Shown one piece after another: positions 2,448 to 16,885 of a stretch of 20,000 nt of DNA; within the stretch, counting starts at the first letter, position 1, and each line of letters opens with the position of its first letter. The position numbers were made by a program, and so were the translations under genes. The notes under the pieces were generated by a model. The model was not told the DNA's origin. It saw only the letters and a list, made by a program, of their open reading frames with translations, and did not search any database. Source of the DNA: an uncultured virus (IMG/VR IMGVR_UViG_3300021598_001639) (lineage: Duplodnaviria > Heunggongvirae > Uroviricota > Caudoviricetes); IMG/VR virus record IMGVR_UViG_3300021598_001639, one strand, 5' to 3'.

Positions 2448-2659
2448 AAATTCTTGACAAAAAACTCACCAGCAAGTGTTATCATAAAAAGTTCAAGGTC
2501 ACGACCAACAGCAACTTTTTTGATTAAGCCTAAATTTAAAAGAGGTTGGAAATCAGGGTCATAAGGTTTTGTCCAAATTGTTTTATGATTTGCGATATAT
2601 TTTAAAAGGTTTATATTGATAGTAGTGCTAGTTTTTTTCAAGACATTCTTTTTATTCAT
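2444..2659 (-). CDS. small hypothetical protein, possibly winged-helix-like
   Basis: 71 aa ORF. The LLNLGLI...FMITLAG pattern is reminiscent of wHTH C-termini. Confidence 0.45.
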   Translation of the reverse strand: MNKKNVLKKTSTTININLLKYIANHKTIWTKPYDPDFQPLLNLGLIKKVAVGRDLELFMITLAGEFFVKNF

Positions 2660-2790
2660 AAAAAGGAAATGATTTTTTGTAAAGGTGGGTCAAAGATACC
2701 AATAGTTAGAGTATCAATGACACCACGAAAAAGAGCTAAGACAATTTTGATTTTGAGCGAGAACCTTCAGAATTAAGGAAATCTGGCGTA

Positions 2791-3645
2791 CTAATATTTC
2801 AAAAGGGAACCTTTAGTCACCTCAAGAATCTCTTGAATGGTAGTGACTCGCCCTAAAGAAAGACCTAAAGGTTGAGAAGGAGTGATAGCGTGCTGGTCGG
2901 GGGACTTACGAATAGTGAAGTCAATATCGACACCTGAGAACCAAGCAACAGAAGCTGGTAAATCATAAAGTCCAACAGAATAAGAGATATAAGCCCTAGT
3001 CCAAAGGTGAGCTATTTGCAAAGCTAAACAAAAACGAGCAGAATCTTTAGCAAGAACAATGTACCGGTATTCATCATGAATAGTGATACAAAGTCGAGCA
3101 TCAATGTCGTATTTGGAACAAAGATAATCAACAGCAGTAAGACAGATGTGTAAAAAATCAACACCGGAGCTTTGAACACAAAAATTAATTTTGCTAGTTA
3201 GATAATCTTTGTGACCAGTAAAACGGGGATGAATGGCATCACTCATAGTACGTTTTAAGGTAGGAGTGCGAGGGTCACTAGAAGTAGCAATACGTTCAAG
3301 TTCGTTAAACATAACGGACTCAGTACCTAAACGCCAACGTCCTTCAATTTTTTTACCTTTTGTTTTGGCAAACATATCAGAAGCAAGCTGTTTAGCCTCA
3401 GCAGAAGTCAAAGTTTTACGGAACTCCCGCATATAATTAATCATCGATTTAAGACCAGCAGAATATCGACGGCTATAGACGACAGTTTTAGCATTATCAC
3501 GACTGATACCTAATAAAGAAGCAGTCATAGAATGAGGGTCAGTGCCATCTTCTTTACAGCCAACAAGTGTTTGAAAAGAGGAAGGCGTACCACCAATAAT
3601 GCCAACATGAGCATCAGCTATAAGGTCAGAAATCCATAACTCTTG
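2791..3645 (-). CDS. polA: DNA polymerase gamma-like family A polymerase, exon 2 (rest of motif A, motifs B and C)
   Basis: Begins QELWISDLIADAH (Pol gamma QELWIAAVLGDAH). Contains GTDPHSMTA, SRDNAKTVVYSRRYSAG (motif B), NFCVQSSGVDFLH and CITIHDEYRY (motif C). The listed start at 3684 lies inside the intron. Confidence 0.93.
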   Translation of the reverse strand, partial: QELWISDLIADAHVGIIGGTPSSFQTLVGCKEDGTDPHSMTASLLGISRDNAKTVVYSRRYSAGLKSMINYMREFRKTLTSAEAKQLASDMFAKTKGKKIEGRWRLGTESVMFNELERIATSSDPRTPTLKRTMSDAIHPRFTGHKDYLTSKINFCVQSSGVDFLHICLTAVDYLCSKYDIDARLCITIHDEYRYIVLAKDSARFCLALQIAHLWTRAYISYSVGLYDLPASVAWFSGVDIDFTIRKSPDQHAITPSQPLGLSLGRVTTIQEILEVTKGSLLKY

Positions 3646-4539
3646 CAAGTTTCTTACGAATAGCCCGCTTCCGACTATTCTCACTGAGTCTCCCCAGTGT
3701 TGAGACTATATCATATACGGTTTCCCGTATCTCCCCGTTTCGAGCTTGCTTAAGCCCTACGATAATAAGCCTAGTTCTTTCAAGATACCCTTATATGCTT
3801 TACCCTTCTTGATGTTAGCCACATGGGACTTCTGTACTCCATGCTCTTTAGCTAATTGTTCATCTGGTAAGTCAGAATTGAAGATTTTTACAATATCTTC
3901 TGTGGTTAACTTGAATCTAGACGTTTCTCTAGTCGTTGAAGAGTCCTGTACAATCCTTCCCACTGTGGTTCTGTTCATGCCCACCATCTCCGCTATTTTT
4001 CGGGTGGTGTAACCCTGTACCCATAGTTCCATTACTTCTTCCCGGTGAATATCTCTGAAGTCCGAGTGTTGGTTTTTTCTACCTTGGGGGCGTTTGTCGC
4101 CCTTTAGCCGATAGTCTTCAGAGATATTGTGGGAAATTGTACACCATTCAAGATTTTCAAGATTGTTATTGGTCTTGCAATCGTCTTTGTGGTGGACTAC
4201 GGGGAGATTGTCTGGGTTGGGTAGATGGGCTAGGGCTACCATACGGTGAACCATGATGTTTTTAGTTTCCCCTGAGTCATTTGTTAGGACAGTTGCCATA
4301 TATCCACTTTTATTGACTGCTGGTGACATAAAACGCTTGACTCGGTGGGAGTAGATACGACCCGTTTTAGTAACGCTGTACTTACTAAATCCGGGGATTG
4401 TAACTAGGCTTTCCCGCTGATTGTCCATAACCTTTATCTTTTTAAACGCTATCCCAATTGTATCCTAAAGGGATTGTGGTGTAAAGGCTTAACTGGAGTT
4501 TCCAGCAATTAGAGGAGTTTAACGACAGCCATTGTGTTA
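3646..4539 (-). ncRNA. group I self-splicing intron (IA-type), 894 nt, in polymerase motif A
   Basis: Exon 1 ends in U and the intron ends in G; removal joins GADVDS and QELWI in frame. P1 GACAGU/GCUGUC with U-G at the splice site. P element AAUUGCUGGAAA, Q element AAUCAGCGG, R element UUCAACGACUA (3930-3940), P3 CUCCUC/GGGGAG, P8 AUACGG-GAAA-CCGUAU, S element AUGAUAUAGUCU, P9 CACUGGG-GAGA-CUCAGUG. Confidence 0.93.
3757..4428 (-). CDS. intron-encoded NUMOD4-HNH homing endonuclease (I-HmuI-like) with C-terminal HTH modules
   Basis: IPGFSKYSVTKTGRIYS (NUMOD4), VHRMVA...VVHHKDDCKTNNNLENLEWCTISHN (HNH), YTTRKIAEMVGMNRTTVGRIV (HTH). Confidence 0.92.
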   Translation of the reverse strand: MDNQRESLVTIPGFSKYSVTKTGRIYSHRVKRFMSPAVNKSGYMATVLTNDSGETKNIMVHRMVALAHLPNPDNLPVVHHKDDCKTNNNLENLEWCTISHNISEDYRLKGDKRPQGRKNQHSDFRDIHREEVMELWVQGYTTRKIAEMVGMNRTTVGRIVQDSSTTRETSRFKLTTEDIVKIFNSDLPDEQLAKEHGVQKSHVANIKKGKAYKGILKELGLLS

Positions 4540-6363
4540 ACTGTCCACGTCAGCACCAATTTGAACATAGCCTTGTGGCATACGAACAGTGGTTTTAATT
4601 TCACTTCCAATGCGATTAGCCCGGGGGTTAGCCGCAGTAAGCCAAGTGTTTTCAACAGCACGACCAGTGACAGTACCGGCAGTAATTAATTGAGGACAAA
4701 TAAAACCAGTTCGATTGTCAGAAGACAGAACAACAAATTGATTTTTTACTCGGTCTTGAACAGAAACCCAATAAGCGCAAGAAATAGCAGATTGGAGGGC
4801 TAATTTAGCTTCAGGGAAGTCAGAATCAAGAATACCTCCTTCCATTTCAGACAGATAATCTTTAGACAAAGGCGAACCAACATTGGAATTTTCACCGGCT
4901 TTGTGAGGTAGGGGATAATACAGAGTATCGACATAAGAAAGACCACCATCGTGAGAGATAAAGTTTTCAAGAAGCAAAGGTGTGGTATTGGAAGAAACAT
5001 CAGCACCCTGAGTGGCAAGAAAACCCCACTTACGATCCTTATGATGATAAAGAGGGAAACCCATCCAAGAGAGACGTAAAAGATAGGGGGTACATTGGGA
5101 ACGAACAGTAAGGTTCAGTTTATCACCCTTGAATAGCTTACGATACCATTCTGGTTTGTCTTTATGTTTTTTAGCCCGTGAAGAAGGCATAGACCAATCT
5201 AAATGACGAAGCCAAGCATCAGAGTTAGGGTCTAATTCACCGCTAATAAACTTAGAAACTGCATCATCAGCCAACATTTGCAAGTGGGAATTAATTTTTA
5301 AGCGTTCGGACTGAAACAACTCTTCACACCGATTGATATAGCCATACCAACTTTCACGGGTAACAGGAAGGATAGCAGTACCCATTTGCAACATTCCGCA
5401 AAAAGTCACAGCAGAAGGGCATTTTTCCTTAAAGCGGAACCATAAAACTTGATAAAGTTGAAAAGTGACTTTAACATCATTAGCACAGTATTGAGCTAAT
5501 TGCTGAAAACGATTTTTTATTTCCAAAAGAGTACCGGTAACAAAATAATCACGGTCGGATTTGGAAATAGAATAACCTAAATGCAATCTTGAAGTTTCGG
5601 CTAAAGAATTACCGCTAGAAACCTCAAGCCAATCAAAATAAAAAGGAGACTCACCTTGCTCATCAAGAGCTTTATTATGTTTGATGCTAAGAGGACGTTG
5701 TTTTGAACTTAGACCAGCGACGCATTGGTGCATAGACAAAGTATCCCAAAAACGAACGCCTGAGAGTTTGAGGTCATAAGTTTCTAAGGTTCTTGCACGG
5801 TCATAACTGGCATAATGAGCAACAACAAATTTGTCGGATTTACCCAAAGGACAAAGAGTATCAGAACCGTTTGAAACCAGTTTAGGGGAAACCCAAAAAT
5901 ACCAAGCGACAGAAGAAACAGCACAAGCCATGACAGGGTAATTAGAGCTAGTAACAGCAACCTCACAGTCATAAACAATGGACATCTCAAGAGGGTAAGG
6001 GACAGAATAGGGTTCCGACCCATCCATAGGGTAACAAGTCCAACCGCACTTGAAAATAAATTCAGAAGGAATAGGTGGAATACTGGTACGAGCTAAAGCC
6101 TCCGCTAAATCTAAATAAGGTTTAGAACGCTGAATAGCAATGTTGTGAAAATGTTTTTCAAGGTCTTCACCTTCAAGAGGGGGTAAATCAAATTCAATAG
6201 TAGGAGGAGTAGGAATGTTCGAGCCACTCAGATTGAAGCTCTGTAACTGTCTTTTGGCTTCGTCACGAGCAGTTTTGCTTGGGTGGTTTTCTAAATCCCC
6301 AAATAATTGCTCCCTTAAGGATTCAGAAATCAAAGGAATCCCTACAGCATTTTTTCTAGACAT
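4540..6363 (-). CDS. polA: DNA polymerase gamma-like family A polymerase, exon 1 (3'-5' exonuclease, spacer, start of motif A)
   Basis: Exo I VYDCEV, Exo II VAHYASYDRAR, FWDTLSMH, Exo III QYCANDV, LPHKAGENSNVGSP, TAGTVTGRAVENTWLTA, GADVDS. All are collinear with mitochondrial Pol gamma motifs. Confidence 0.93.
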
Positions 6364-6395
6364 ACACGGTTTTATTTTAAGTGGTTTACATTTTA

Positions 6396-6424
6396 AGTAT
6401 CGTACAAAGTTAATCTTTTGTCAA
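6396..6424 (-). promoter_or_regulatory. putative sigma70-type promoter of the polymerase gene
   Basis: TTGACA-N17-GATACT about 30 nt upstream of the ATG at 6363. The -10 element is imperfect. Confidence 0.4.
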
Positions 6425-6535
6425 GGTTGAAATATTGACAGGGGATGGAATAATCACACAGCAAGGATTGAGCGGGGAGGGGAAAAACAAAAAAACATTG
6501 ACAATGGTTGTAGTCCTTAATAAATTAATAATCAT

Positions 6536-7289
6536 ACTTGGTGCTAACTTAGAATTTCTCTGGTTAGAGAATCGCTTTTGTCGATGCGCTCGCAGGGGAA
6601 AAGGAAACTTACGGTTAATTCGTCTCCCTCGTCTTCCTCGTCGCATTAAACGACTACTATCCATCCGTTTTTCAACTCGTTTAAAGGGAAGCTCTAGGTG
6701 AGCCGTCTACAGAGTAAAACCAGAAGATGGGACATTAATTCCAGAAAACAATTTGCTGGGGTCAATTCCTACAGAAATAGGTTGAGTTTTATTTTCTTGA
6801 TCATCTTGCTTTGTAGAATCAGGTGTAAGAGGAAATTGAGGATTAAATCGATGAACAAATCACTGTTATCCTAAAACAAAATCCCCTTGACACCGTGTTT
6901 GTAACTCATTGTTAATGAGATCAATCTGTTTGCTTCCCACTGCGATTTTGACCACTCCTCAATGTTTTAGCAGGTCTAGAACGTCCAACATCACTATGAA
7001 TAGAATCTTGTAAAGCATCAATTAATATCTCCGGTGGTAAAGGCCTACGAAGCTCACTTTCCTCCTCAGACAAGGGTGTTAATTGCGGTCTTTGGGGTGG
7101 ATTACCACGCCCAAGATTCTCTATTACTTTATCATTGTCAGAAGGTTCTGCTATCAGTTGGACATAGAATTGTCCTAAGTCGTTGAATTTACCGATGGCT
7201 TTTCCTTCTTTAATCCACCGTCTAGCCCGACTAGGTTTAGTCGGCATTAGAGGTCGATTGTCTGAAGAGATTACAGGTATTCTTTGCAT
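6536..7289 (-). pseudogene. isrB: IsrB/IscB (RRXRR/PLMP, IS200/IS605 OMEGA nuclease) remnant: interrupted, nonsense-mutated and truncated
   Basis: MQRIPV...RPLMPTKPSRARR...LGQFYVQL (PLMP domain), then a ~340-bp insert. Resumes KTQPISVGIDP (RuvC-I), has an in-frame TAG at 6707-6709, then the bridge helix MRRGRRGRR...RFSN...KLAPS. Homology stops there, with no RuvC-II/III. The N-terminal style resembles IsrB more than IscB. Confidence 0.82.
6921..7289 (-). CDS. PLMP/RRXRR domain fused in frame to a 70-aa Pro-rich tail
   Basis: Intact 122-aa ORF. The first ~52 aa are the IsrB/IscB N-terminus and the rest comes from the insert. Confidence 0.45.
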   Translation of the reverse strand: MQRIPVISSDNRPLMPTKPSRARRWIKEGKAIGKFNDLGQFYVQLIAEPSDNDKVIENLGRGNPPQRPQLTPLSEEESELRRPLPPEILIDALQDSIHSDVGRSRPAKTLRSGQNRSGKQTD

Positions 7290-7294
7290 GGAGA

Positions 7295-7533
7295 TAATCC
7301 TTAAGAGTGAAGTTAATGTCCTTTACCGCAACACAATCAAGATGTCTTGTCTAACAACGCTTTACCAATAAAGCTTAGAGATAGTCCGAACGAGGGAAGG
7401 ATTCGTAAGTCTGGGACAGATTGTGTCTCAATGCGGTAGTCGCTACTTGCGTTGCTTAAATTGGTCTAGGCAAGCCCCGCACCTTTAGGACGGGGTTAGT
7501 AACATAATGAGCAACAACAAATTTGTTGGATTT
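7295..7533 (-). ncRNA. omegaRNA (HEARO-like) scaffold at about 7295-7503 with 5' guide segment 7504-7533
   Basis: About 210 non-coding nt directly upstream of the PLMP ORF, starting GTTACTAACCCCGTCCTAAAGGTGCGGGGCTTG, the typical 5' hairpin of IscB/IsrB elements. A further hairpin CGAA...TTCG follows. The 3' boundary is approximate. Confidence 0.8.
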
Positions 7534-7609
7534 TATTGAGGAAAAAGGTTAAGAAGCAACGACAGCACTACAATTAATAGTAATGGTTTGAGCGACAGGG
7601 TGAAGTCGT

Positions 7610-8107
7610 TTAGACACTGCCAGTGAAGTGTTTTCTAGTTCGAGCGTGTAAATAATTTTCTGGACGGTTAGTGACTTTAGCCATTTCTACATTAGCTTTA
7701 AAATCTTTAACTTTCTTAATATAGGAATCAATAGTTTGTCGTTGATGCACGTCACCCAGACCTTTAAATTTTGGTCTATTAAGATACCAAGTTTGATATT
7801 CGATTAGGACATCAATTAAGGGTGAAAAGACAATGCAATAAGGTTGAATAGAGGTCAAAATGTCGATAGCTAATTGACCTTTGATAATCCATTTTTTGTT
7901 ACGATTGGGAGGTTTTGCGATATAAACAGTTCCCCCTAACATTTGACTAACTAGATGCAAATAATTAATATTTTTGTGATGAAATTCGATGGCAGGGGTA
8001 ACAAAGTTTTTATGACGCATTAAGCTAATAGAGGCTTTGGCTTCAATCATACCAGCGACATAAGCAGTTTCGAGGGGAGATAGCGTGTGAATCAGACTGT
8101 TGGACAT
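7610..8107 (-). CDS. free-standing single-motif LAGLIDADG-family protein, degenerate
   Basis: AYVAGMIEAKASISL aligns to AYLAGLIDGDGSI. The downstream LGGTV...W...A..IL..IQPY pattern is typical of LAGLIDADG endonucleases. Confidence 0.7.
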   Translation of the reverse strand: MSNSLIHTLSPLETAYVAGMIEAKASISLMRHKNFVTPAIEFHHKNINYLHLVSQMLGGTVYIAKPPNRNKKWIIKGQLAIDILTSIQPYCIVFSPLIDVLIEYQTWYLNRPKFKGLGDVHQRQTIDSYIKKVKDFKANVEMAKVTNRPENYLHARTRKHFTGSV

Positions 8108-8165
8108 AATAAATTTTGGTACAAATTGGTAGAGGGACTATGTGAAAGAATTAGAAATACCGAAA

Positions 8166-8795
8166 TCATTCAGCTAAAGCATTAATTATGGAGCCATAAT
8201 TATCCTCAATGAAAGACAGCAAATTTAAATCATTATCTAGGGTATCGTCATCCACGTCATTTGGTGAATTTTTATCCCATTCCCAAGCGTAAAGGATAGC
8301 ATTGTGAAGAATAAATTTGGAAAGCAGAGGTAAACGAGAAAGACGAAAAGCTTGAATATAATCAAAGTATTGCTGTTCACGAATAAGCATAAAACTTAAA
8401 AACCAAGCATGATAATTATGGCTTAGGTATTCGAGACAAGATTCAGGAGAATCGAAAAGATGTTCAAAAGGGTATTTTTTTCCTTGTTCTTCAGGGGGCA
8501 AAAATTCATACCAATCTTGAATGGACTCTAGAGGGTAACATTTGTTACGCCAAACAAAATACTCGTCTATTAAAGAAGGAAAAAGGTCTTTAACAGCTTC
8601 AAGAGTGTAAAGGTTTAGAGTCATTTTGTACTTTAAAGGAACTTTAGAAACCTGTAAGGTTTTCAAATAGGTAGAAAATTGTCTATTAGAGATAAGCGTA
8701 ACTAAAGAACTAACGGTTTCAGCTTCTGTATGGTTCATAGGGGAGGACTCCAAATTGATTAGTTTAATCATAGCACGGTTGACGGAAATGGTCAA
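8166..8795 (-). CDS. hypothetical protein
   Basis: 209-aa ORF with an acidic C-terminus. The true start may be the internal ATG (MIKLINL). Confidence 0.6.
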   Translation of the reverse strand: MTISVNRAMIKLINLESSPMNHTEAETVSSLVTLISNRQFSTYLKTLQVSKVPLKYKMTLNLYTLEAVKDLFPSLIDEYFVWRNKCYPLESIQDWYEFLPPEEQGKKYPFEHLFDSPESCLEYLSHNYHAWFLSFMLIREQQYFDYIQAFRLSRLPLLSKFILHNAILYAWEWDKNSPNDVDDDTLDNDLNLLSFIEDNYGSIINALAE

Positions 8796-8826
8796 GAAAA
8801 ACCCACCTATATTACGGGTGGGTTTT
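8793..8826 (-). terminator. rho-independent terminator after the helicase gene
   Basis: AAAACCCACC-N9-GGTGGGTTTT stem running into TTTTTCTT on the minus strand, just after the helicase stop at 8832. Confidence 0.7.
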
Positions 8827-8831
8827 AAAAA

Positions 8832-10291
8832 TTATTCTTTGATGAAAACTTTTTGTTTAGCTCGTGTGAGAGCTACATAAAGCAATTTTTTCCAATTAGG
8901 GGCGTTATATACATCAAGACCATCGATAAAGACAACATCAAAACCAGACCCTTGACTTTTATAGACAGTCAAAGCATAATTATATGCCCAATGATACGTC
9001 AAAAAGCTTAAGTTTTGCCATTCTTTATAGGCAGAATATAGAGCTTTACAATTGGATTGTAGCTTAGAACTGACAGAATAAAGAGCGTCAGGGTAGGCTC
9101 GTTCAAGATAAGTTAAAGCTTCTTGAGCAATTGCCAAAATAGAGGGGTCTGGAACTATAGGAATTACGCCAGAGATTAAACCATCGATACAATAAAGAAT
9201 GGCTGTTAAATCCTTCAATTCTTCTTGCAAAGTTATAGAACGATTCATGACCTGAATCATTTTATCGTTATTGCGAGGGTCAATAAAAGAAACCGTCCAT
9301 TGTAAATCTCTGTCTAAAGATTTAACAGTAGTATCCCAAACATCAACAGTAAAGTTGGACATTTTGTGAAAATTAAGAGTAAATTCCACTAACTCTTCAG
9401 CGTCAAAAATGTCGATTTCTTTCTCTTTAAAGGGGTCACAAAGTTTGCAAGTTGAAAAATGGGAACTAAGGATGGACACGATTTCACCATTAACAAAATT
9501 GGCAACTTTATTAGCACGGTTAACATATTTAAAGTAGTTATTACGGCGTAAACTGATAAGTTGTTCGCCTTCAGCAAAGGGTTTATTAGCGATACCTTTT
9601 ATTGAACGAATAAGTTCGTTATATTGACAAACTTTATCGTTTTTATGAGCTAATATTTTGAACTCAATATTTTCTGAAGCTACAGTATTTTTTAGCTTTT
9701 CATACCATTCATTAGCAGAAATAAGTTCAACATTGTGCAAATCAGGGTCTAAACATTACTAGCTTTTTGACCGGGTGGGGGTAGTTGACAAGAATCACCA
9801 ACCCAAAGAATTTTAGCTTTGATTTGGGACGCTTTTTCCCTTAAACGACACTCCATATCCTTAGAAAGAATAGAAACTTCATCAACGATAATCAACTGGT
9901 ATTGGCTAGTGACAAATTTAGAGTTACCGGTATCTAAAGTAGATTTTTCAGAGTCTCTGGTAACTCGGACACCTTTCATTTTGTACTGCCCACCTTTTTC
10001 TTGAATTACAAGTCCTAAAATGGCATGAATAGTATAAACATCTGCGTTAAATGTCAACTTTTCTTTAAGGACAGAAGCCGCTTTATTGGTAGGACATAAA
10101 ATAGCAATTTTTAGGTTAGGGTGTGACTGTATCCAATGAGCAATTAAAGTGGTTTTACCAGTACCAGCCCCCCCAGAAATTAAATGTTCCCCCTTTTTTG
10201 AACCCCACCAACGTTCTAAATCTTCGAGAGCTAACCTTTGGTCTTCTGTTAATTGAAGGGGTGTGGTTTCGATAGCTACAGACGATGACAT
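8832..10291 (-). pseudogene. Dda/RecD2-like SF1B DNA helicase split into two ORFs (9749-10291 and 8832-9740) by a frameshift
   Basis: ORF1 has Walker A GGAGTGKTT, Walker B IIVDEVS and motif III GDSCQLPP. ORF2 has YALTVYKSQGS and LYVALTRAK. The frames differ by 1 nt at AATGTTTAGAC. Confidence 0.82.
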
Positions 10292-10341
10292 AGCGACAAA
10301 CTCCTTGTTGAATGTTAAAAAGCGAATTTTGATTGAAACTC

Positions 10342-10489
10342 GGTTGTGGTTTCGATATTGACATACTCACCGTCCTTAAAGAGTGGTGATTCTTGACGCT
10401 TCACCGACTGACGCTACCGAGGTAGTCTTACTCTGTCTCTGCGCCCGTTTAGAGTCTCCCAATGCCCTATGGCGACTTTCTTGTTTGGA
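10342..10489 (-). ncRNA. orphan IS200/IS605 right end / TnpB omegaRNA (reRNA) scaffold at about 10358-10489, with 3' guide segment 10357-10342
   Basis: Minus strand reads ...GAAGCGTCAAGAATCACC-ACTCTTTAAGGAC-GGTGAGTATGTCAA, a subterminal hairpin ending in TCAA as in IS605-family right ends. The 5' part encodes a TnpB-like tail (KKVAIGHWETLNGRR). No tnpB or tnpA gene is present. Confidence 0.72.
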
Positions 10490-10975
10490 TTATACCCAAT
10501 CTTTTTCGTTCCATATTTGTTTGTCAATAAAATCTGAGATAGACTTTACTATTTCGTCTGTTTTGTCAAGAATAAAATCAATCTCATCTTGCTTGTCGGA
10601 AATTTCAGATTCATCCCAAACAAGTGCCTCATCATAGCTTAATCCTATATATCTATATATTTCTTTTATTTCTCCGGTTCTTAGATCAAATATTCTACTA
10701 CTTACTTTAACTACTGGTAAATCATCAAAATCTCGGTAATAGCACATAACCTTAATATGCGCTATGGTCTGACTATCTAAAAGAACCTTAGCATTACCCA
10801 TTAGGTAAATTGTAGTCGCTGATGTTATTTTCCATTCTGACCAAAGAAGATATTTGAATAACCAATTATCCCAAAAAGACCATGTATTATACTCTTTGTA
10901 GCAAAAAGCCGCAATCTTTTTGAGTATATCTATTCTTCGTGGCTTATTAAAAAACTTTTCTGTTGTTGTGTTCAT
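10490..10975 (-). CDS. hypothetical protein, paralog family member 3 (more divergent)
   Basis: Shares KI..FC...Y..W and I..FI...I with the two upstream ORFs. ATGA start/stop overlap. Confidence 0.7.
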   Translation of the reverse strand: MNTTTEKFFNKPRRIDILKKIAAFCYKEYNTWSFWDNWLFKYLLWSEWKITSATTIYLMGNAKVLLDSQTIAHIKVMCYYRDFDDLPVVKVSSRIFDLRTGEIKEIYRYIGLSYDEALVWDESEISDKQDEIDFILDKTDEIVKSISDFIDKQIWNEKDWV

Positions 10976-11397
10976 AGCGTCACCTCGGTTTGTATTTCAG
11001 TTTCGATAAATGAAAGGATATTAATCAAGATTTGTGTTCCTTTTTCACACCATAAGTTTAGTTCTTTATGTTTAGCAGTCCCACTTTTCTTGAACAAGAT
11101 TTTACTGTTTTTTCTATCATTTATCCATATAAGAAAACTTCCTTCCCAATCTAGATTAGAGATAGTAGACCGACCTTCTATATAATTTCTAAAATCACTA
11201 GGTGAACCGTTACTACTATAAGAGTTGTTGCTATTGACCCTTATATCTATTTGTATTCCATTTATAGAATTAAGAATAGAGCGATACCCGTAAATGATGT
11301 TTTCAGTTCTACTTAAAGACGTAAATGACCACTTTAGCTCTGGGTAAGTTTTTTGGCAGAAATTAAATATTTTTTGGGTTGTTTCTGTAGTGTTCAT
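10972..11397 (-). CDS. hypothetical protein, paralog family member 2
   Basis: MNTTETTQKIFNFCQKTYPELKW...WEGSFLIW...FIETEIQTEVTL. Confidence 0.75.
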   Translation of the reverse strand: MNTTETTQKIFNFCQKTYPELKWSFTSLSRTENIIYGYRSILNSINGIQIDIRVNSNNSYSSNGSPSDFRNYIEGRSTISNLDWEGSFLIWINDRKNSKILFKKSGTAKHKELNLWCEKGTQILINILSFIETEIQTEVTL

Positions 11398-11774
11398 AAT
11401 GTCATCTCGGTTTGTATTTGAGTTTCGATAAACTCAAAAATACTTGACAGCATATCTTTGGGTTTTATAAATAAATCTGTTGACGTATCAAAATCTTTTT
11501 TTGATTTAAAAGAGAATTGAGATTCTTTTCTATCTAGCCAAATTTTGAAAGAACCAGACCATCGCTCTGAACTAGAGATAAACGTGCTTACTTCTCCTAA
11601 CACAACAGAACTTCTTAATAAAGTACCAATAGTCTCTATACTGACATCAATCTCTGTTATTTTACCCCAAATATGAAAAGTTGAATTTGTGTAATTTGTT
11701 TGTTCCCAATTTATTTCTGGGTAACGGTCTTTACAGAAATCTAATATTTTTTGGGATGTTTGCCATGTGTCCAT
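11394..11774 (-). CDS. hypothetical protein, paralog family member 1
   Basis: MDTWQTSQKILDFCKDRYPEINW...WSGSFKIW...FIETQIQTEMTL. AGGAG Shine-Dalgarno upstream. Confidence 0.75.
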   Translation of the reverse strand: MDTWQTSQKILDFCKDRYPEINWEQTNYTNSTFHIWGKITEIDVSIETIGTLLRSSVVLGEVSTFISSSERWSGSFKIWLDRKESQFSFKSKKDFDTSTDLFIKPKDMLSSIFEFIETQIQTEMTL

Positions 11775-11828
11775 TTGTTACTCCTATTTACTCTTGGATT
11801 TCACCAGACCAGATTGGTTCGTAAATTA

Positions 11829-11857
11829 ATTATATATTGGTTTGAGTAAAATGTCAA
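11829..11857 (-). promoter_or_regulatory. consensus sigma70 promoter
   Basis: Perfect TTGACA-N17-TATAAT, about 55 nt upstream of ATG 11774. Confidence 0.85.
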
Positions 11858-11922
11858 GAGGCATAATATCTTGGTACATAGTTTTAGGGCTGAGGGGGAT
11901 AGTTAAAGGCGAAATATTAGTG
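11833..11922. repeat. 90-bp direct repeat, copy A
   Basis: 80/90 identical and ungapped against 16796-16885 by manual alignment. Confidence 0.9.
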
Positions 11923-12096
11923 AAACTCAGTTTAGGAAACGAATGAACGCAGATAGAATTACACTAAGACAGACTACAGACACAGCAATTCCAGAATCAA
12001 AATTTTCAGGGGTTGAGAAAAATCTTTTAGACTTTAACCCTAGTATAAAACTACCGTAAATGTTAATGAATGTTAACAAATGCGGGTCTAAGTCAA

Positions 12097-12394
12097 TTAG
12101 GTAGTGTCATTCCAGTCAAAAGCATTTTCCACTACATTTAAATCCTTATCGTACTCACGATTAAAGGCGTAATCGTCGTAGGGATGCCACTGAGCCAGTT
12201 CTTTAAGGCTTTCGTCTAAAACTATCGATTGTATCTAGAAAAGAGCATGAGTATTTTTTCCAAAATCCAAAGTTTTGATCTCTCATAAAACTTAATGCTT
12301 GTTTAAAATCTTTTTCTTTAGTTTCATGCTTCGAGATAAATTCATTGTTCCAAAAAAACTGAATTGTCATGATTTCTCCTGTTGTTTTGTCCAT
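12097..12394 (-). pseudogene. small hypothetical gene, apparently frameshifted
   Basis: ORF 12203-12394 overlaps a start-less open frame (IVLDESLKELAQWHPYDDYAFNREYDKDLNVVENAFDWNDTT*) ending at 12097. Confidence 0.4.
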
Positions 12395-12969
12395 ACTTTA
12401 ATCTAATCACCTCGCCCTATATCGTGGTTAATTAAATGTGACATTATCTCAACTGTCACACCTCCTGAAAATAGATACGATAACCCTCAGTCTGTTTGCT
12501 TACCCCGTAATCCATCCACCGCCCCAGCAATCGGCTGAAACTGAAGCACCCCGAACCGTGTCACCGGCGCATTAGGGACGTGCCTATCAACGCACTCCAC
12601 CAACTTATACTTAAATAGAGCCAGTCTTTACAAAAGAAAAAACGGGCAAATAATAATGGCTTTTCGGATGACACCAATCTAACCCAAAAAGGCGATCGAT
12701 ATGCTGACCTCTATCGGCTACAAGGGAATAAGTTCATCAGAGAAGGCGAGAAAAAAGGAGCCTACTATCCAGTGATTAACCCAAACAGTAGCGACAATGC
12801 TCCCATCTGCTTTATCGGCTATTACGATTAATCCCCCAACCCTGAATAGTTTTGTCTTTCTAACCTGGTTATCTCTTTAAGTAGCTCGTTTCTTTCCTCA
12901 ATAAGTTTTTGGTTTTCGCTTAAAGCCTATCTATTTCAGCTTTTAACTTTTCCTTTTCTTTAAAATTAT

Positions 12970-13167
12970 TCATTGTATGTAACCTCCATTAATTTTTACA
13001 CTTGGATTTGATTCTTGGTAACTGCCATTACTTTTGATAAAAGGTAAAGCAAGTTTATAAACATTATCAATTTTAATATAGCTTTCAATAATTTGAAGCG
13101 TTATGTCCACAATAGGAATTTGCCCAATTTCTATTGTTGCCTTATCAAATAAGCGCCGTGAAGCCAT
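12970..13167 (-). CDS. small tail-cassette protein
   Basis: Likely start MASRRLFD at 13167, 5 nt after the upstream stop. 65 aa. Confidence 0.55.
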   Translation of the reverse strand: MASRRLFDKATIEIGQIPIVDITLQIIESYIKIDNVYKLALPFIKSNGSYQESNPSVKINGGYIQ

Positions 13168-13171
13168 ACGA

Positions 13172-13975
13172 TTACTGCCCGAAAAAAAGAGAACCTGAAA
13201 GAGTTTGAGTAGATGTCGATGGAAATAAAAAACCAGACAAACAAGCGACTGGGAAGATTTTGCAAAGGCTTCCAATAAATCCCCCCGTACTTACAGAATC
13301 AACTGGCTGGTTAGACACAGACATCATAGCCAAAGGCTTGAATAGGATCACCCCAAAATTACCAGCCGTGCCAGTGCTGGCTGATAAAGTTACTGACTTT
13401 ACAGCACGCACACCAGTATCCCCAGCGGCAAGAGGTATCAAATGTGTTCTACCTGAGTTTCGTTCACTGGTGGAACTAGAAGGAGGAAAAGAATACAAAG
13501 AGCTAATTTTCTCCGATACCCCATCTTGATTGGTATAATTAATTGAGGCAGTAACAATTGTGCCTCCTATAGCTGTCCAAATAATTAAGCCAGCAAATAC
13601 CCCTTGACCATTTGTATATCTTGTTAAAGGTGCTGTTGGCAAGTTGATAGTTTGTTCTGTGGTGACAATCCCACTTAGCCCGCCAGAGATATTAAGCAAA
13701 TCTGCCACGATCAAAGTGCCTGCTCCATTATAATCAAATTGGCCTCCCAGCAGGAGGGTATCACTTGTGCTCAATGAATTTAATTGATTATTTATTGCAT
13801 ACGGACTGGTATTGTCCAAGTTAATACTTAAAGATGGAATAGAAGGCACAGTAGGAAAAAATCTGGAGATCAACGACGCTTTAGCAATAGATGCCGACGA
13901 TACATAACTTTGAAAATTTTCTGCATTTTGCAAAGATATTTGGCTAAGATAATCTTGATAATTATTAATAGGCAT
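13172..13975 (-). CDS. putative virion/tail-associated beta-rich protein, paralog of 13978-14817
   Basis: Start MPINNYQD at 13975, 3 nt after the upstream stop. Shares LTR.T.G.G, YTNQ.GV, IPLA.GDTG.R and LSASTGTAGNFG with its neighbour. Confidence 0.7.
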   Translation of the reverse strand: MPINNYQDYLSQISLQNAENFQSYVSSASIAKASLISRFFPTVPSIPSLSINLDNTSPYAINNQLNSLSTSDTLLLGGQFDYNGAGTLIVADLLNISGGLSGIVTTEQTINLPTAPLTRYTNGQGVFAGLIIWTAIGGTIVTASINYTNQDGVSEKISSLYSFPPSSSTSERNSGRTHLIPLAAGDTGVRAVKSVTLSASTGTAGNFGVILFKPLAMMSVSNQPVDSVSTGGFIGSLCKIFPVACLSGFLFPSTSTQTLSGSLFFGQ

Positions 13976-13977
13976 TT

Positions 13978-14817
13978 TTACTTCTCCACAAAAGCTAAAC
14001 ATCCAAAAATATCGGGAGCAGTTGTCCCTCCTGCCCGGAAAATATACGAGAGACAGGCATTCGGGTGGATCGAAGGAATACCAGGTAATCCTGTTGTGTA
14101 ATCTCGCCAACCCATTAGGGATGGCGAAGGTATAGACTGCCAAGATATCGGCTGAACAAGAGTAATTCCAAAATTACCAGCCGTGCCAGTGCTGGCTGAT
14201 AAAGCAACTTTTTCAATTACTCTGATTCCCGTATCTCCGAGAGCCAAAGGTATTCTTTGCATTCTCGTCGCTTCTCTAAATCCAGTTCCTCCTATGTTTA
14301 TAGTCGAAACTCTTCCTGGTACACCCTCTTGATTTGTGTAAGTCATTGTCAAAGTGGTACTGGTTGTTCCGATCTGACTGTATATTTCGTAAAAAGCAAT
14401 ATTTCCAATGCCCTCCGTATTTCGGGTAAGAGCGGTAGAACCTTGTATCGGCTGATCCGTAGTTATTGCAGCATTTAATCCTCCAATCTGAAATAAGCGA
14501 TCATAAACTACGTAGGTTCCAGCGACAGTAGAAGTGATCCCAGCACTAATTAACAATTTTTCCTGCGAGGCTACAGGAGCAGTAAAAGGCATTGCTCCTA
14601 TCGTCGAACGGCTTGGAATTTCGGCAATTGTAGGAACAGCCCCACCACTCGGAATTCCCTCGTATTGCCATAAAGACTGATCCCTCCCAGTGATTGGTGA
14701 TGTGGCACTGGCTACCCCGATTCGAGGAACTTTATGGAAAAAGAGGTTATCTGGATTTCCGTTGTTACCTCCAGATTGCCTGTTAATTAAATCAGATAAT
14801 CCACTTAAAGCGGCCAT
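13978..14817 (-). CDS. putative virion/tail-associated beta-rich protein
   Basis: 279 aa, Gly/Thr/Ser-rich, in the tail-fibre-like cassette, with a tandem paralog downstream. Confidence 0.7.
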   Translation of the reverse strand: MAALSGLSDLINRQSGGNNGNPDNLFFHKVPRIGVASATSPITGRDQSLWQYEGIPSGGAVPTIAEIPSRSTIGAMPFTAPVASQEKLLISAGITSTVAGTYVVYDRLFQIGGLNAAITTDQPIQGSTALTRNTEGIGNIAFYEIYSQIGTTSTTLTMTYTNQEGVPGRVSTINIGGTGFREATRMQRIPLALGDTGIRVIEKVALSASTGTAGNFGITLVQPISWQSIPSPSLMGWRDYTTGLPGIPSIHPNACLSYIFRAGGTTAPDIFGCLAFVEK

Positions 14818-15020
14818 AAGTTTCTTTCGGTTATGAATTGGTTAACTTCAACTAAAAAAGTTGATAAATTCAAAAAATTAACTGGACTAGCTACGATTAG
14901 CCTCGAATCTGGTAAAAATTGAGGCAAAATTTCAACACCTTCATTTATATACCATTTGCAATGCCAGTCGCCTGCTTCAGATTCAAAAGTGTAAGATTCA
15001 ACAGTTTCTATGACTCTCAT
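14805..15020 (-). CDS. small hypothetical protein
   Basis: 71-aa ORF tightly packed in the cassette. Confidence 0.55.
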   Translation of the reverse strand: MRVIETVESYTFESEAGDWHCKWYINEGVEILPQFLPDSRLIVASPVNFLNLSTFLVEVNQFITERNLWPL

Positions 15021-15037
15021 GATTTTTCGGGATTAAG

Positions 15038-15226
15038 TTAACTAGAAATGCGAAAATAAATACTACCTTCTGGGTTTCCGTCGCTATTATTAGGAGCCTC
15101 AGTTCCGTAGGTAATAATTGTAATGGTTGGTTTCTCCGAAATATTAGCCCAAGTTAAATAACTTGATACCCATCGGGTTGTGACAACGCTATCTAAAGTG
15201 TTAATTGGGCCAAGATACTCTTTCAT
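15038..15226 (-). CDS. small tail-fibre-associated protein
   Basis: W..I..KP and GTEAP...G..GSIYF motifs typical of tail-fibre linker segments. Confidence 0.55.
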   Translation of the reverse strand: MKEYLGPINTLDSVVTTRWVSSYLTWANISEKPTITIITYGTEAPNNSDGNPEGSIYFRISS

Positions 15227-15234
15227 TATACTTA

Positions 15235-16044
15235 CTAAGCTAACAATTTGGCTACAAAACCATTGACAGGGGGAACTGCTGTAGAGGCAAAAGTTAGGCG
15301 AATCGAAGTGTTACTTAATCTTTCTGTGAATACGCCCACAGTATCTCTATTGCCGCTATTGCGGATCACTTCTACACTAGGATTAATATCAGTCAGTGTG
15401 TGGGTAATTACAAAAATCGTATTAGTGCCGTCTCCAAAAGGATTGGTAGTTACAGATCGCCGTCTGCCTGACCAACTGGCAAGGATAGAAGGAGTGACAT
15501 ATTTAGCCGTATCTGTCCCAGATTCTAATTCGGCTAAAGTAGCACGCTGTACCTTGCCTGCTGTGGTTTCACTTGCATCCGGTACTCCCGACCCGTGAAC
15601 TTGCCAGATAATCGCAGAAGTACCAATAGTCACAGATTGCGTGATTTGTCGATAAGTTACCCCGTCATCGTTATTCCCACTACCAGACGCAACAGTGACG
15701 ATTGCATTTCTTAGCTCGGACCCCGTACTAGCGTCAGCAGTGCGAGTAGCCGGAACAGAAGCTCCGTTCCAATTGTAAAGTCCATTTTCTGTGTTATCGC
15801 TTTGATTTGCGGCAATAAAGCGAGAATTAGCCAGGGTCATAGTTACCCCACCAATGATCGACCCGGGAGCATTTAAATTGATATTTGATGGGGCAGATGC
15901 AAAGACAGCATCTTTATAATCAAATCCTTCTAAGAGGGCATTTACAGTGCCAAAATTAACTAGATCATTAGGGTTTTCCGGAGCAACAGAAGCCTGGATT
16001 TTTCCCTTAAACTCAACATCAGACCAATATTCAATAATCTGCAT
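15235..16044 (-). CDS. phage tail/head fibre-like structural protein
   Basis: YKDAV...NINL...NQSDNTENGLY domain, DASETTAGKVQRAT tail-fibre repeat, and a C-terminal GDGTNT..VITHTL domain. Confidence 0.75.
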   Translation of the reverse strand: MQIIEYWSDVEFKGKIQASVAPENPNDLVNFGTVNALLEGFDYKDAVFASAPSNINLNAPGSIIGGVTMTLANSRFIAANQSDNTENGLYNWNGASVPATRTADASTGSELRNAIVTVASGSGNNDDGVTYRQITQSVTIGTSAIIWQVHGSGVPDASETTAGKVQRATLAELESGTDTAKYVTPSILASWSGRRRSVTTNPFGDGTNTIFVITHTLTDINPSVEVIRNSGNRDTVGVFTERLSNTSIRLTFASTAVPPVNGFVAKLLA

Positions 16045-16046
16045 AA

Positions 16047-16364
16047 TTACCTCGATAAGATTGCGTAGCCACTAAAAGGACTACTAAAAACAATTTGAGT
16101 AGTGGTTAAAGAAAGATTTTGTGTAAAAGCCTCTATTTTTACTCCTCCCGAACTAAAAACTTGAGTTTGTGGCTCAAAGTTTAAATTATGCACAATTATC
16201 CACGTTGCAGACGGAGTGTTTTGAGTGTGCTTATAAAAAACGCTACCATCTCCGGGTGGTCCGGGTGGGCCAGGTGGGCCTTGTATATAATTGTCCGGGT
16301 CTCTAGCCAGAACAAAAATCGCTGATTCTTCCTCTTGCAGGACTACTATCGTCGGCTGATTCAC
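16047..16364 (-). CDS. collagen-repeat virion protein
   Basis: QGPPGPPGPPG followed by HTQNTPSATWIIVHNLNFEP, a common phage fibre module. Confidence 0.7.
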   Translation of the reverse strand: MNQPTIVVLQEEESAIFVLARDPDNYIQGPPGPPGPPGDGSVFYKHTQNTPSATWIIVHNLNFEPQTQVFSSGGVKIEAFTQNLSLTTTQIVFSSPFSGYAILSR

Positions 16365-16780
16365 ATTAAAACCTCCGTTACTCGATCGCTCACCTCCACC
16401 AATCCCTCAAAAAGCGTAAAAATTCGCTCAAAATTTGTAGGATGCCGTATCTTAATATCGTACTCCCACAGATGTCGTCCGACCACAATCGCTTGACCAG
16501 CACTCGGTGACTTAGTTGGTGGCAAAGCTAAAGCAACCGAAGCTCGAAGGAATGGTACAATTCTCGTGCATTCCGTCTCCACCTCGTTAATCGGAATGAT
16601 GATCGGAATCATCGGCTCAAAATCAAAAGCTCCGTAAAGATCACCCCCTGCCTTTTTGCGAACCTCCCCAAAAATTAGCCAGCTAGTAAAATCGCCCTCG
16701 ATCGCAAAAGTGCGCCGCCGCCATTCACTGCCACGCTCTATCTTCAAATCACCAATTAAATCAAATCTAACCGGTCTCAT
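16361..16780 (-). CDS. putative baseplate/tail adaptor-like structural protein
   Basis: L.IERG...W...YDI.I.......LFEG.V.V...VT pattern seen in phage proteins upstream of fibre genes. GGAGG Shine-Dalgarno. Confidence 0.6.
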   Translation of the reverse strand: MRPVRFDLIGDLKIERGSEWRRRTFAIEGDFTSWLIFGEVRKKAGGDLYGAFDFEPMIPIIIPINEVETECTRIVPFLRASVALALPPTKSPSAGQAIVVGRHLWEYDIKIRHPTNFERIFTLFEGLVEVSDRVTEVLM

Positions 16781-16795
16781 GTCTTCCCTCCTTTC

Positions 16796-16885
16796 TATAT
16801 TGGTTTGAGCGAAATGTCAAGAGGCTTAATATCTTGGTACATATATTTAGGTCTGAAAGGAATAGTTAAGGGCGAAATATTAGTG
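16796..16885. repeat. 90-bp direct repeat, copy B
   Basis: 80/90 identical to 11833-11922. It retains TTGACA but the -10 position reads TAGAAA, and it includes the methyltransferase stop codon. Confidence 0.9.

Follow-up and report, generated by a model that had tools for sequence, protein, structure and literature searches.

In a 20,000-nt stretch of uncultured viral DNA (the window), a broken IsrB element lies in a spacer upstream of the phage's DNA polymerase gene, polA, and the 23 nt directly adjoining its omega-RNA scaffold, at the place of the guide, are an exact copy of the interior of polA itself. Comparison with three relatives marks the block as an insertion, its isrB gene is a pseudogene, and a sister allele of polA carries, immediately after the same 23 bases, the ATGA motif beside which elements of this family insert, at a position where the window's own polA reads GCCA. 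We infer that the element is, on balance probably and with ample room for doubt, a relic that once sat in a Met allele of polA, was later moved upstream by a route that can likewise only be reconstructed, taking 23 nt of its flank along, and is now a fossil.

Results

A composite repeat joins a polymerase segment to the element

Over bases 2500-9800 the window is 93.5% identical, across 76% of that length, to Microcystis phage Mic1 (MN013189), and by this likeness we regard its source as a relative of that phage; the genes in this part of the window lie on the minus strand and are collected, with the parts of the element, in Table 1. The 31-mer CATAATGAGCAACAACAAATTTGTTGGATTT at 7503-7533 is a copy of 5811-5841 at 30 of 31 bases, with a single mismatch. 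Allowing up to three mismatches, these two places are its only matches in the window, and none of 200 dinucleotide shuffles gave a second one, in keeping with the sequence-only reading, which had described just such a copy of a polymerase region 1.7 kb away. That reading was also right about sense and context: on the coding strand the 31-mer is AAATCC(A/G)ACAAATTTGTTGTTGCTCATTATG, translated KS(N/D)KFVVAHY, its target KSDKFVVAHY occupies codons 166-175 of the 608-aa polymerase ORF, the guide has coding-strand sense, and the 3' flank of the self copy is GCCAGT.

The 31-mer is a composite of 7 native spacer bases, 23 polA-identical bases and the first base of the scaffold (G 7503), and its polA-specific part is confined to the 23 nt at 7526-7504. 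The spacer bases, AAATCCA, are also present in the element-free allele L052. Because the mismatch lies within these shared native bases, it sits, as we read the alignment, at a recombination junction, a seam of AAATCC microhomology, and is not the sister-allele SNP (N for D) that had been proposed. The 23-mer itself occurs in none of the empty sites of Mic1, L052 and L088. Neither polA similarity beyond the 31-mer nor a long polA fragment upstream was present in six related loci, which agrees with the earlier statement that polymerase homology ends with the repeat.

Table 1. Coordinates of the element, its junctions and its polymerase target in the window
Feature	Position	Strand	Evidence or remark
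Native spacer AAATCCA, left junction	7527..7533	-	6 of 7 bases match polA AAATCCG; microhomology, not transferred sequence
23-nt guide segment ACAAATTTGTTGTTGCTCATTAT	7504..7526	-	identical to polA 5812-5834; polA codons 168-174
Omega-RNA scaffold, the RE end of the element, starting GTTACTAACCCC	7304..7503	-	200 nt; HEARO alignment and homology
5' part of isrB, some 51 codons from the start codon at 7289	7135..7289	-	Pfam RRXRR 1-48; 85% nt identity to gp171
341 nt of foreign DNA within isrB, the 3' portion of a different gene	6794..7134	-	extends some 590 nt further in L054
Middle part of isrB, in another frame than the 5' part	6540..6793	-	Pfam RRXRR 90-138; 75% nt identity to gp171
Right junction: filler AAGT, then native spacer ATGA; homology to empty sites resumes	6532..6539	-
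Pol-gamma-like DNA polymerase, N-terminal exon ORF, 608 aa	4537..6363	-	PF18136 exonuclease domain, E 4.8e-80; 97% identical to Mic1 ORF86
Self target copy in polA, codons DKFVVAHY	5812..5834	-	23-nt identity to guide
Self TAM position GCCA (Ala codon GCC)	5808..5811	-	ATGA (Met) in sister L088

The scaffold belongs to a family of IsrB elements

At gathering thresholds no Rfam family was found in the whole window. At relaxed thresholds the HEARO model (RF02033) aligned at 7503..7312 over its full length (model 1-211), starting with position 1 at 7503 and agreeing well in the 5' stem and the first hairpin, yet with 23.1 bits (E 0.026) against a cut-off of 83; the model search thus bore out the expected start and extent and fell short of the gathering score. 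We identify 7304..7503 as a scaffold by its homology with copies that have a complete isrB gene next to them: identity is 88-92% with scaffolds adjoining intact 382-aa isrB genes in Microcystis and its phages, and 7504..7135 is 85-87% identical to the upstream region and gene start of Ma-LMM01 gp171, an RRXRR protein, with the likeness stopping exactly at 7504. A conserved 26-nt scaffold pattern occurs at 12 loci in viral contigs and at 17 in Microcystis and Crocosphaera genomes; all 22 distinct copies start GTCACTAACC (GTTAC in the window), and the DNA to their left is unrelated, so that the repeat does begin at the 5' boundary of the scaffold, as had been claimed.

Aligning 18 sequences yields a consensus fold in which 10 of 51 pairs show compensatory changes; the window keeps 48 (three are broken), against 50-51 in copies beside intact isrB (none or one broken). 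An intact 382-aa ORF follows the scaffold in L077 and L082 (Microcystis), in L017 and in Ma-LMM01. The best PDB match of the L082 protein is IsrB, 8DMB (E 3.7e-43, nearly full length), and Pfam finds RRXRR and no HNH domain in the intact 382-aa homologues. Given these matches and the conserved scaffold, the family is IsrB with its omega RNA, and the assignment of 7295-7503 to an IsrB scaffold and of the adjoining ORF pieces to isrB remnants stands, supported by Pfam RRXRR matches and by homology to intact copies.

In a survey of the 22 distinct guides of the family, that of the window alone matches an unrelated gene. Guide capture as a recurrent process was considered and rejected: a second match reaching 20 or more of 24 bases exists for five of the 22, and four of these five are paralogues or tandem partial repeats. 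The family shows other arrangements besides. In the Ma-LMM01-like viral contigs L007, L008 and L011 a full IsrB element lies 354 nt downstream of a truncated one, so that its guide is isrB coding sequence, and several scaffolds of these contigs are preceded by two to four incomplete tandem copies of their own first 11-30 bases (GTCACTAACCC...). Between two paralogous genes of Mic1, ORF18 and ORF19, lies an orphan omega-RNA scaffold with an LE but without isrB (23333-23630; L004 3001-3300). The 3' end of ORF18 forms its guide, and the paralogy of the two genes accounts for a further match of 22 of 24 bases in ORF19. ORF18 is itself preceded by an LE-like end.

At each of the eight distinct LE ends (GGGTTTCAGACCCATTTTTTCG and its variants) ATGA comes next and often opens the following gene, and comparison of the occupied site of Ma-LMM01 with the empty site of L008 assigns ATGA to the target. 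Published work on DtIsrB describes an NTGA motif, a 20-nt guide and a nick 8-11 nt upstream of the motif (Hirano et al. 2022, PMC9581776), and gives NTG for the cyanobacterial CwIsrB and DsIsrB (PMC9581776). In IscB-type elements the guide is described as encoded outside the transposon boundary and as relying on outside transcription (bioRxiv 2023.03.14.532601). Likewise, the guide in the IsrB family is the DNA that flanks the RE boundary. The earlier notion of a guide captured against polA accordingly holds in one part, a polA copy absent from three element-free relatives, and fails in the other, active acquisition, the guide being flank DNA.

The insertion and its junctions

The element-free relatives display the site before the event. 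L052 reads ...CCTCAATAAAATCCA/TAATTTTTG/ATGATTATTAAATT..., with ATGATT directly after TAATTTTTG, Mic1 reads ...GTTTAAAAATACATTTTCG ATGGTTATTAAATT... and L088 ...GCTTAAAAATCTTTGTTAG ATGGTTATAAAATT..., and the three spacers are homologous to one another across the insertion point. The occupied site of the window reads ...CCTCAATAAAATCCA ACAAATTTGTTGTTGCTCATTAT GTTACTAACC...(element)...AGCACC AAGT ATGATTATTAATTT, with ...CCTCAATAAAATCCA/ACAAATTTG... at its left junction, and here 991 nt (7526..6536), a block absent from Mic1, L052 and L088, stand in place of 9 native bases. On the left, the junction is 9 nt upstream of the spacer ATGA; the right seam falls at the same ATGA and joins it, through the filler AAGT, to the middle of isrB. 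The guide thus adjoins the RE boundary and the right junction is at ATGA, while the LE is absent and the guide matches polA and not the local empty site. The right-junction motif itself (window 6532-6535) is polymorphic, with ATGG in Mic1 and L088 where the window, L052 and L054 have ATGA, and starts an ORF of 42-46 codons in which a 12-nt indel between relatives is in frame.

The native bases just before the motif deserve a closer look. Those of L052, TAATTTTTG, are at edit distance 3 from the LE termini of the family, and those of Mic1 and L088 at distance 4; ranked against 641 background ATG sites, L052 is in the best 1.7% and Mic1 and L088 are in the best 9%. By this resemblance the 'empty' sites may be scars that former deletions left behind. 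Near-perfect LE termini (e.g. CAGACCCAATTTTTCG) stand at L052 7179, L001 1660 and L088 6100, directly before the ATGA start of a gene like Mic1_84, which suggests solo LE scars and a repeated gain and loss of elements at gene starts.

The same bases bear on the possibility that the element inserted beside a short polA-like fragment already in the spacer, the element-free alleles being later deletions that kept about 9 nt of LE. Their likeness to LE termini and the solo LE-like ends before other ATGA starts in these phages are what this account would lead one to expect. Against it, none of the six related loci has polA similarity beyond the 31-mer, and the three empty alleles are mutually homologous across the junction; it names no source for an isolated 23-nt piece of polA and gives no reason for the coincidence with the TAM described below. 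We consider it very improbable.

isrB is a pseudogene in all three distinct occupied sequences

Pfam matches RRXRR positions 1-48 within 7289..6921 and positions 90-138 within 6664..6410. Window bases 7504-7135 and 6793-6540 are collinear with gp171, with 341 foreign bases between them, and the last 690 nt or so of isrB are missing together with the LE end; instead of a full isrB gene (RRXRR/PLMP, split RuvC, no HNH, about 350-380 aa) the window holds two fragments, with RRXRR positions 1-48 in 7289..7135 and 90-138 in 6664..6497. The nearest record, G001, and L059 are 99-100% identical to the window here and share the state of the element; L054, with genes 97-98% identical to those of the window, has both element junctions in common with it. 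In all three distinct occupied sequences, namely the window, L054 and the near-identical G001/L059, isrB is interrupted, frameshifted and truncated, and nuclease activity in cis at present is contradicted by a gene that is dead in every occupied genome seen. The guide of L054 has acquired a second mismatch to polA, a C>T at a distance of 7 nt from the scaffold. Identity between the window and L054 is 92% in the scaffold, 90% in the isrB pseudogene piece and 84-85% in the spacers, and the guide agrees at 29 of 30 bases. The broken pairs, a scaffold diverging about as much as the pseudogene, and the L054 mismatch are signs of decay that argue against selection. Because isrB is destroyed, what is left is the guide-RNA gene of a decayed element without function in cis.

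A Y1 transposase, TnpA (PF01797), was found in none of three phage records (Mic1, G001, G002), with a control positive in 6 of 14 genomes, and the complete Mic1 and G002 genomes contain neither an RRXRR gene nor a Y1 transposase gene. Most iscB elements are described as lacking tnpA (Meers et al., bioRxiv 2023.03.14.532601).

The gene that supplied the 341-nt foreign piece has left traces elsewhere. The stretch 6791-7135 is found at about 95% identity on contigs of 2.8-3.1 kb from the RNA libraries X17 and X20, which at both ends continue unlike the window; a full-length relative of the gene is present in bloom communities, and is perhaps expressed there. About 6.5 kb of the window (10340-16880), between a methyltransferase and a helicase gene, are absent from Mic1 and G002, and at their place G002 has a 48-nt scaffold stump that is followed by, and fused to, the 3' part of the gene piece seen at 6794-7134. 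The helicase is a single 1608-nt ORF in Mic1 and two ORFs in the window (8832..9740 and 9749..10291), where 146 nt present in Mic1, L052 and L088 are wanting (9740-9753); the gap is either a deletion with a frameshift or an assembly fault.

A sister allele of polA carries the motif at the end of the guide

A scan for the 21 TAM-proximal bases followed by NTGA returned one viral contig, and the hit is the polA of L088/G002. This allele reads ...GCTCATTAT/ATGA/GTTATGAT and encodes HYMSYD; the window, Mic1, L052 and L054 read ...GCTCATTAT/GCCA/GTTATGAC, and the window encodes HYASYD. The three adjacent bases changed between L088 and the window are exactly the NTG of the motif and turn Ala into Met; two other differences occur in 160 nt, and divergence over the whole gene is 4.4%. 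The asymmetry between self and non-self that had been surmised is therefore real, with GCCA and no motif in self and ATGA exactly at the TAM position in the sister. The target is present with ATGA in the element-free L088/G002 and spoiled in the carriers, the window and L054; the element-free Mic1 and L052 also have GCCA. G002 is a complete genome with no element at the spacer and no IsrB.

Met occurs in 3 of the 16 Mic1-like alleles seen (L088, P0014 and P0015), Ala in the other 13. The outgroups have Cys (at 64% identity) and Ala (P0003, at 51%), and because of the latter the Met/ATGA allele may be derived, a point that, together with its three adjacent changes, counts against the reading preferred below. 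In a neighbour-joining tree of the alleles, which carries no support values, Met is found in the basal P0014 as well as in the nested pair L088/P0015. Diversity among four Ala alleles has a trough at nt 406-675 around the target, with similar troughs elsewhere and the motif conserved. A search for N-terminal polA fragments of 95-305 aa gave none, a weak test, as such fragments can hide inside the 90% cluster, of whose 116 members 15 are covered. The polymerase gene has features of its own beyond the target: the Mic1 enzyme is described in the Mic1 paper as ORF86 and ORF85 with a 298-bp intron between them, P0007 is an uninterrupted 894-aa polymerase, and in the window a 223-aa ORF with HNH_3, NUMOD4 and HTH (3757-4428, minus strand) sits in the gap between the polymerase exons, is absent there from Mic1 and L054, and resembles a homing endonuclease carried by an intron, which would make it a second selfish element of the polymerase gene.

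The allele difference invites a reading in which the guide works in trans, or did so until recently. An orphan omega RNA, transcribed by read-through from the gene upstream and loaded by a host IsrB, would nick the Met-allele polA of co-infecting sister phages, as a kind of intronless homing or allele exclusion; repair from the window genome would convert the rival allele to GCC and could carry the element along, with self protected by the changed TAM. The sequence match fits this, as all 23 guide bases agree and the canonical motif is present in L088/G002 and absent from self, and a guide length of 20 nt, and an NTG motif in cyanobacterial orthologues, are what is published (PMC9581776). Suitable partners are at hand, with intact 382-aa IsrB genes in Microcystis genomes beside scaffolds 89-91% identical to the window's, and with G002 as a Met-allele genome that is free of the element. 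The gene upstream has the same orientation, no terminator is predicted between them on that strand, and the family scaffold is heavily represented in four of four metatranscriptome runs. In comparison with L054, both scaffold (92%) and guide (29/30) are better kept than the spacers (84-85%).

Other observations weigh against such a function. No occupied genome seen has a working nuclease in cis, the scaffold has diverged about as fast as the isrB pseudogene piece (92% vs 90%) and has 3 broken pairs, and the L054 guide has its mismatch 7 nt from the scaffold. The RNA evidence consists of contigs of the four metatranscriptome runs, in which the contigs covering the scaffold are 44-66 nt long, of high depth and indistinguishable from host copies; the joint of guide and scaffold at 7503/7504 is bridged by no RNA contig among those listed, and the single loose contig end at 7503 is a polA contig. 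Mic1 and L052, without the element, are already GCC, the Met allele is a minority (3/16), and the pattern is found in 1 of 22 family guides. Function in trans is conceivable, with a small chance that the guide still works with a host IsrB, and we regard this reading as unlikely; that the phage keeps the guide-RNA half, borrows the IsrB of its host and nicks the polymerase of sister phages at a site disarmed in self seems to us quite unlikely.

Discussion

Using comparisons of occupied and empty sites, scaffold homology and polymerase alleles, our work here suggests how a piece of an essential phage gene could have come to stand in the place of a guide. The 23 guide bases are directly followed by ATGA in the sister allele, which makes a former place inside the Met-allele polA the most likely one for the element. 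Insertion turns the flank beside the TAM into the guide, and a guide that ends just where the TAM begins is therefore most simply explained by a former insertion in polA. The window element belongs to a transposase-less IsrB family, of the IS200/IS605-type OMEGA kind, that circulates in Microcystis and its phages; elements of this sort insert immediately 5' of ATGA/NTG, and the DNA outside the RE boundary is transcribed as guide. We posit that it would have sat in the Met-allele polA at CATTAT/ATGA, with CATTAT/GTCACTAACC as the junction on the RE side and LE/ATGAGTTATGA on the LE side; the ATG is in frame, and translation of the rest of polA could have started there. Illegitimate recombination would then have moved the RE-proximal 1 kb or so, together with 23 nt of polA flank, 1.7 kb upstream, placing the left junction in the AAATCC microhomology and the right junction at the spacer ATGA, and replacing 9 native bases. 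The move may have come about by crossing-over between two copies and a subsequent deletion, by ectopic repair synthesis or by a template switch. The presumed end state is a fossil, with isrB broken, the LE lost and GCC at the motif position of the phage's own polA.

This reconstruction has its costs. The relocation needs at least two non-canonical joints, of which the right one lies inside isrB and not at the LE. A search by the exact-codon pattern for an element inside polA found no such contig among 2 viral and 47 metagenome loci, in which the relatives represented are L052, L054 and L059 only.

An alternative route would be a templated patch. Here the element inserted canonically at the spacer ATGA, its RE boundary broke at some later time, and a double template switch, primed on AAATCC, copied 23 nt of polA in the course of repair. 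No polA-resident stage would be needed, the ATGA beside the 23 nt in the sister allele would be coincidence, and the original canonical guide would have read ...AAATCCATAATTTTTG beside the same scaffold. One extra event after a canonical insertion would suffice, the source is available in cis and identical at 23 of 23 bases, the junction has a 6-nt microhomology, AAATCC, and its place 9 nt upstream of the spacer ATGA is within the published 8-11-nt window of the IsrB nick. Such a patch leaves unexplained, however, why it ends exactly where the TAM of the Met allele starts, and why the only cluster of three adjacent differences in the region is that TAM; the right junction would still require a separate deletion of the 3' half of isrB and the LE. 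We hold the patch to be improbable and prefer the former insertion in polA.

By descent the window element is, as its sequence indicates, of the IsrB/omega-RNA kind, in the IS200/IS605 (ISC) group. As in the described members of that group (DtIsrB, 8DMB; CwIsrB and DsIsrB; PMC9581776), the scaffold lies on the strand of the RRXRR/IsrB gene and directly upstream of it, the DNA 5' of the RE boundary would serve as guide, and ATGA or NTG would adjoin the target. Contrasting with them, its isrB is a pseudogene, the LE is missing, and the guide matches the interior of a gene 1.7 kb off and not its own site, so that an intact nuclease, an LE and an own-site guide are all wanting.

In the restorative homing described for TnpB and IscB (Meers et al., bioRxiv 2023.03.14.532601; PMC13565253), guide and TAM specify the element-free form of a site, and the Met allele of polA is such a form. 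Here, by contrast, the site specified is not the one where the element now sits, so that cutting would not restore the element by simple homology, and no TnpA is found in Mic1, G001 or G002. The free-standing homing endonucleases of phages (intronless homing of the SegF/SegG type, as described in PMC13565253) offer a further likeness in a nuclease-specifying locus beside a conserved essential gene, a target in the sister allele that is spoiled in self, and a polymerase gene as battleground. The likeness is one of arrangement, and unlike in these systems specificity would come from an RNA and a host protein acting in trans, the cis nuclease being dead. I-HmuI is a nicking intron endonuclease of the SPO1 polymerase gene. 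The TldR proteins, TnpB-derived RNA-guided regulators in phages, likewise show an OMEGA-type guide aimed away from its own flank; as described, they are intact nuclease-dead proteins under selection that address host promoters, whereas in the window the protein gene is destroyed, the site is coding and the guide has the sense strand.

OMEGA guides are thought of as passive copies of the flank, and here a flank-derived guide has probably been parted from its site. It is a perfect 23-nt match to an essential phage gene whose alleles differ exactly at the three bases that the nuclease family reads, and full-text literature searches turned up no published IsrB or IscB guide directed against an allele of a phage polymerase. 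Were the guide to act in trans, it would amount to RNA-programmed intronless homing or allele exclusion, by a natural OMEGA guide aimed off its own insertion site. Even as a fossil, the element would record the invasion of a phage polymerase gene by an IS element and the survival of a guide through relocation, and it is with such a relocation step that guide retargeting would have to start.
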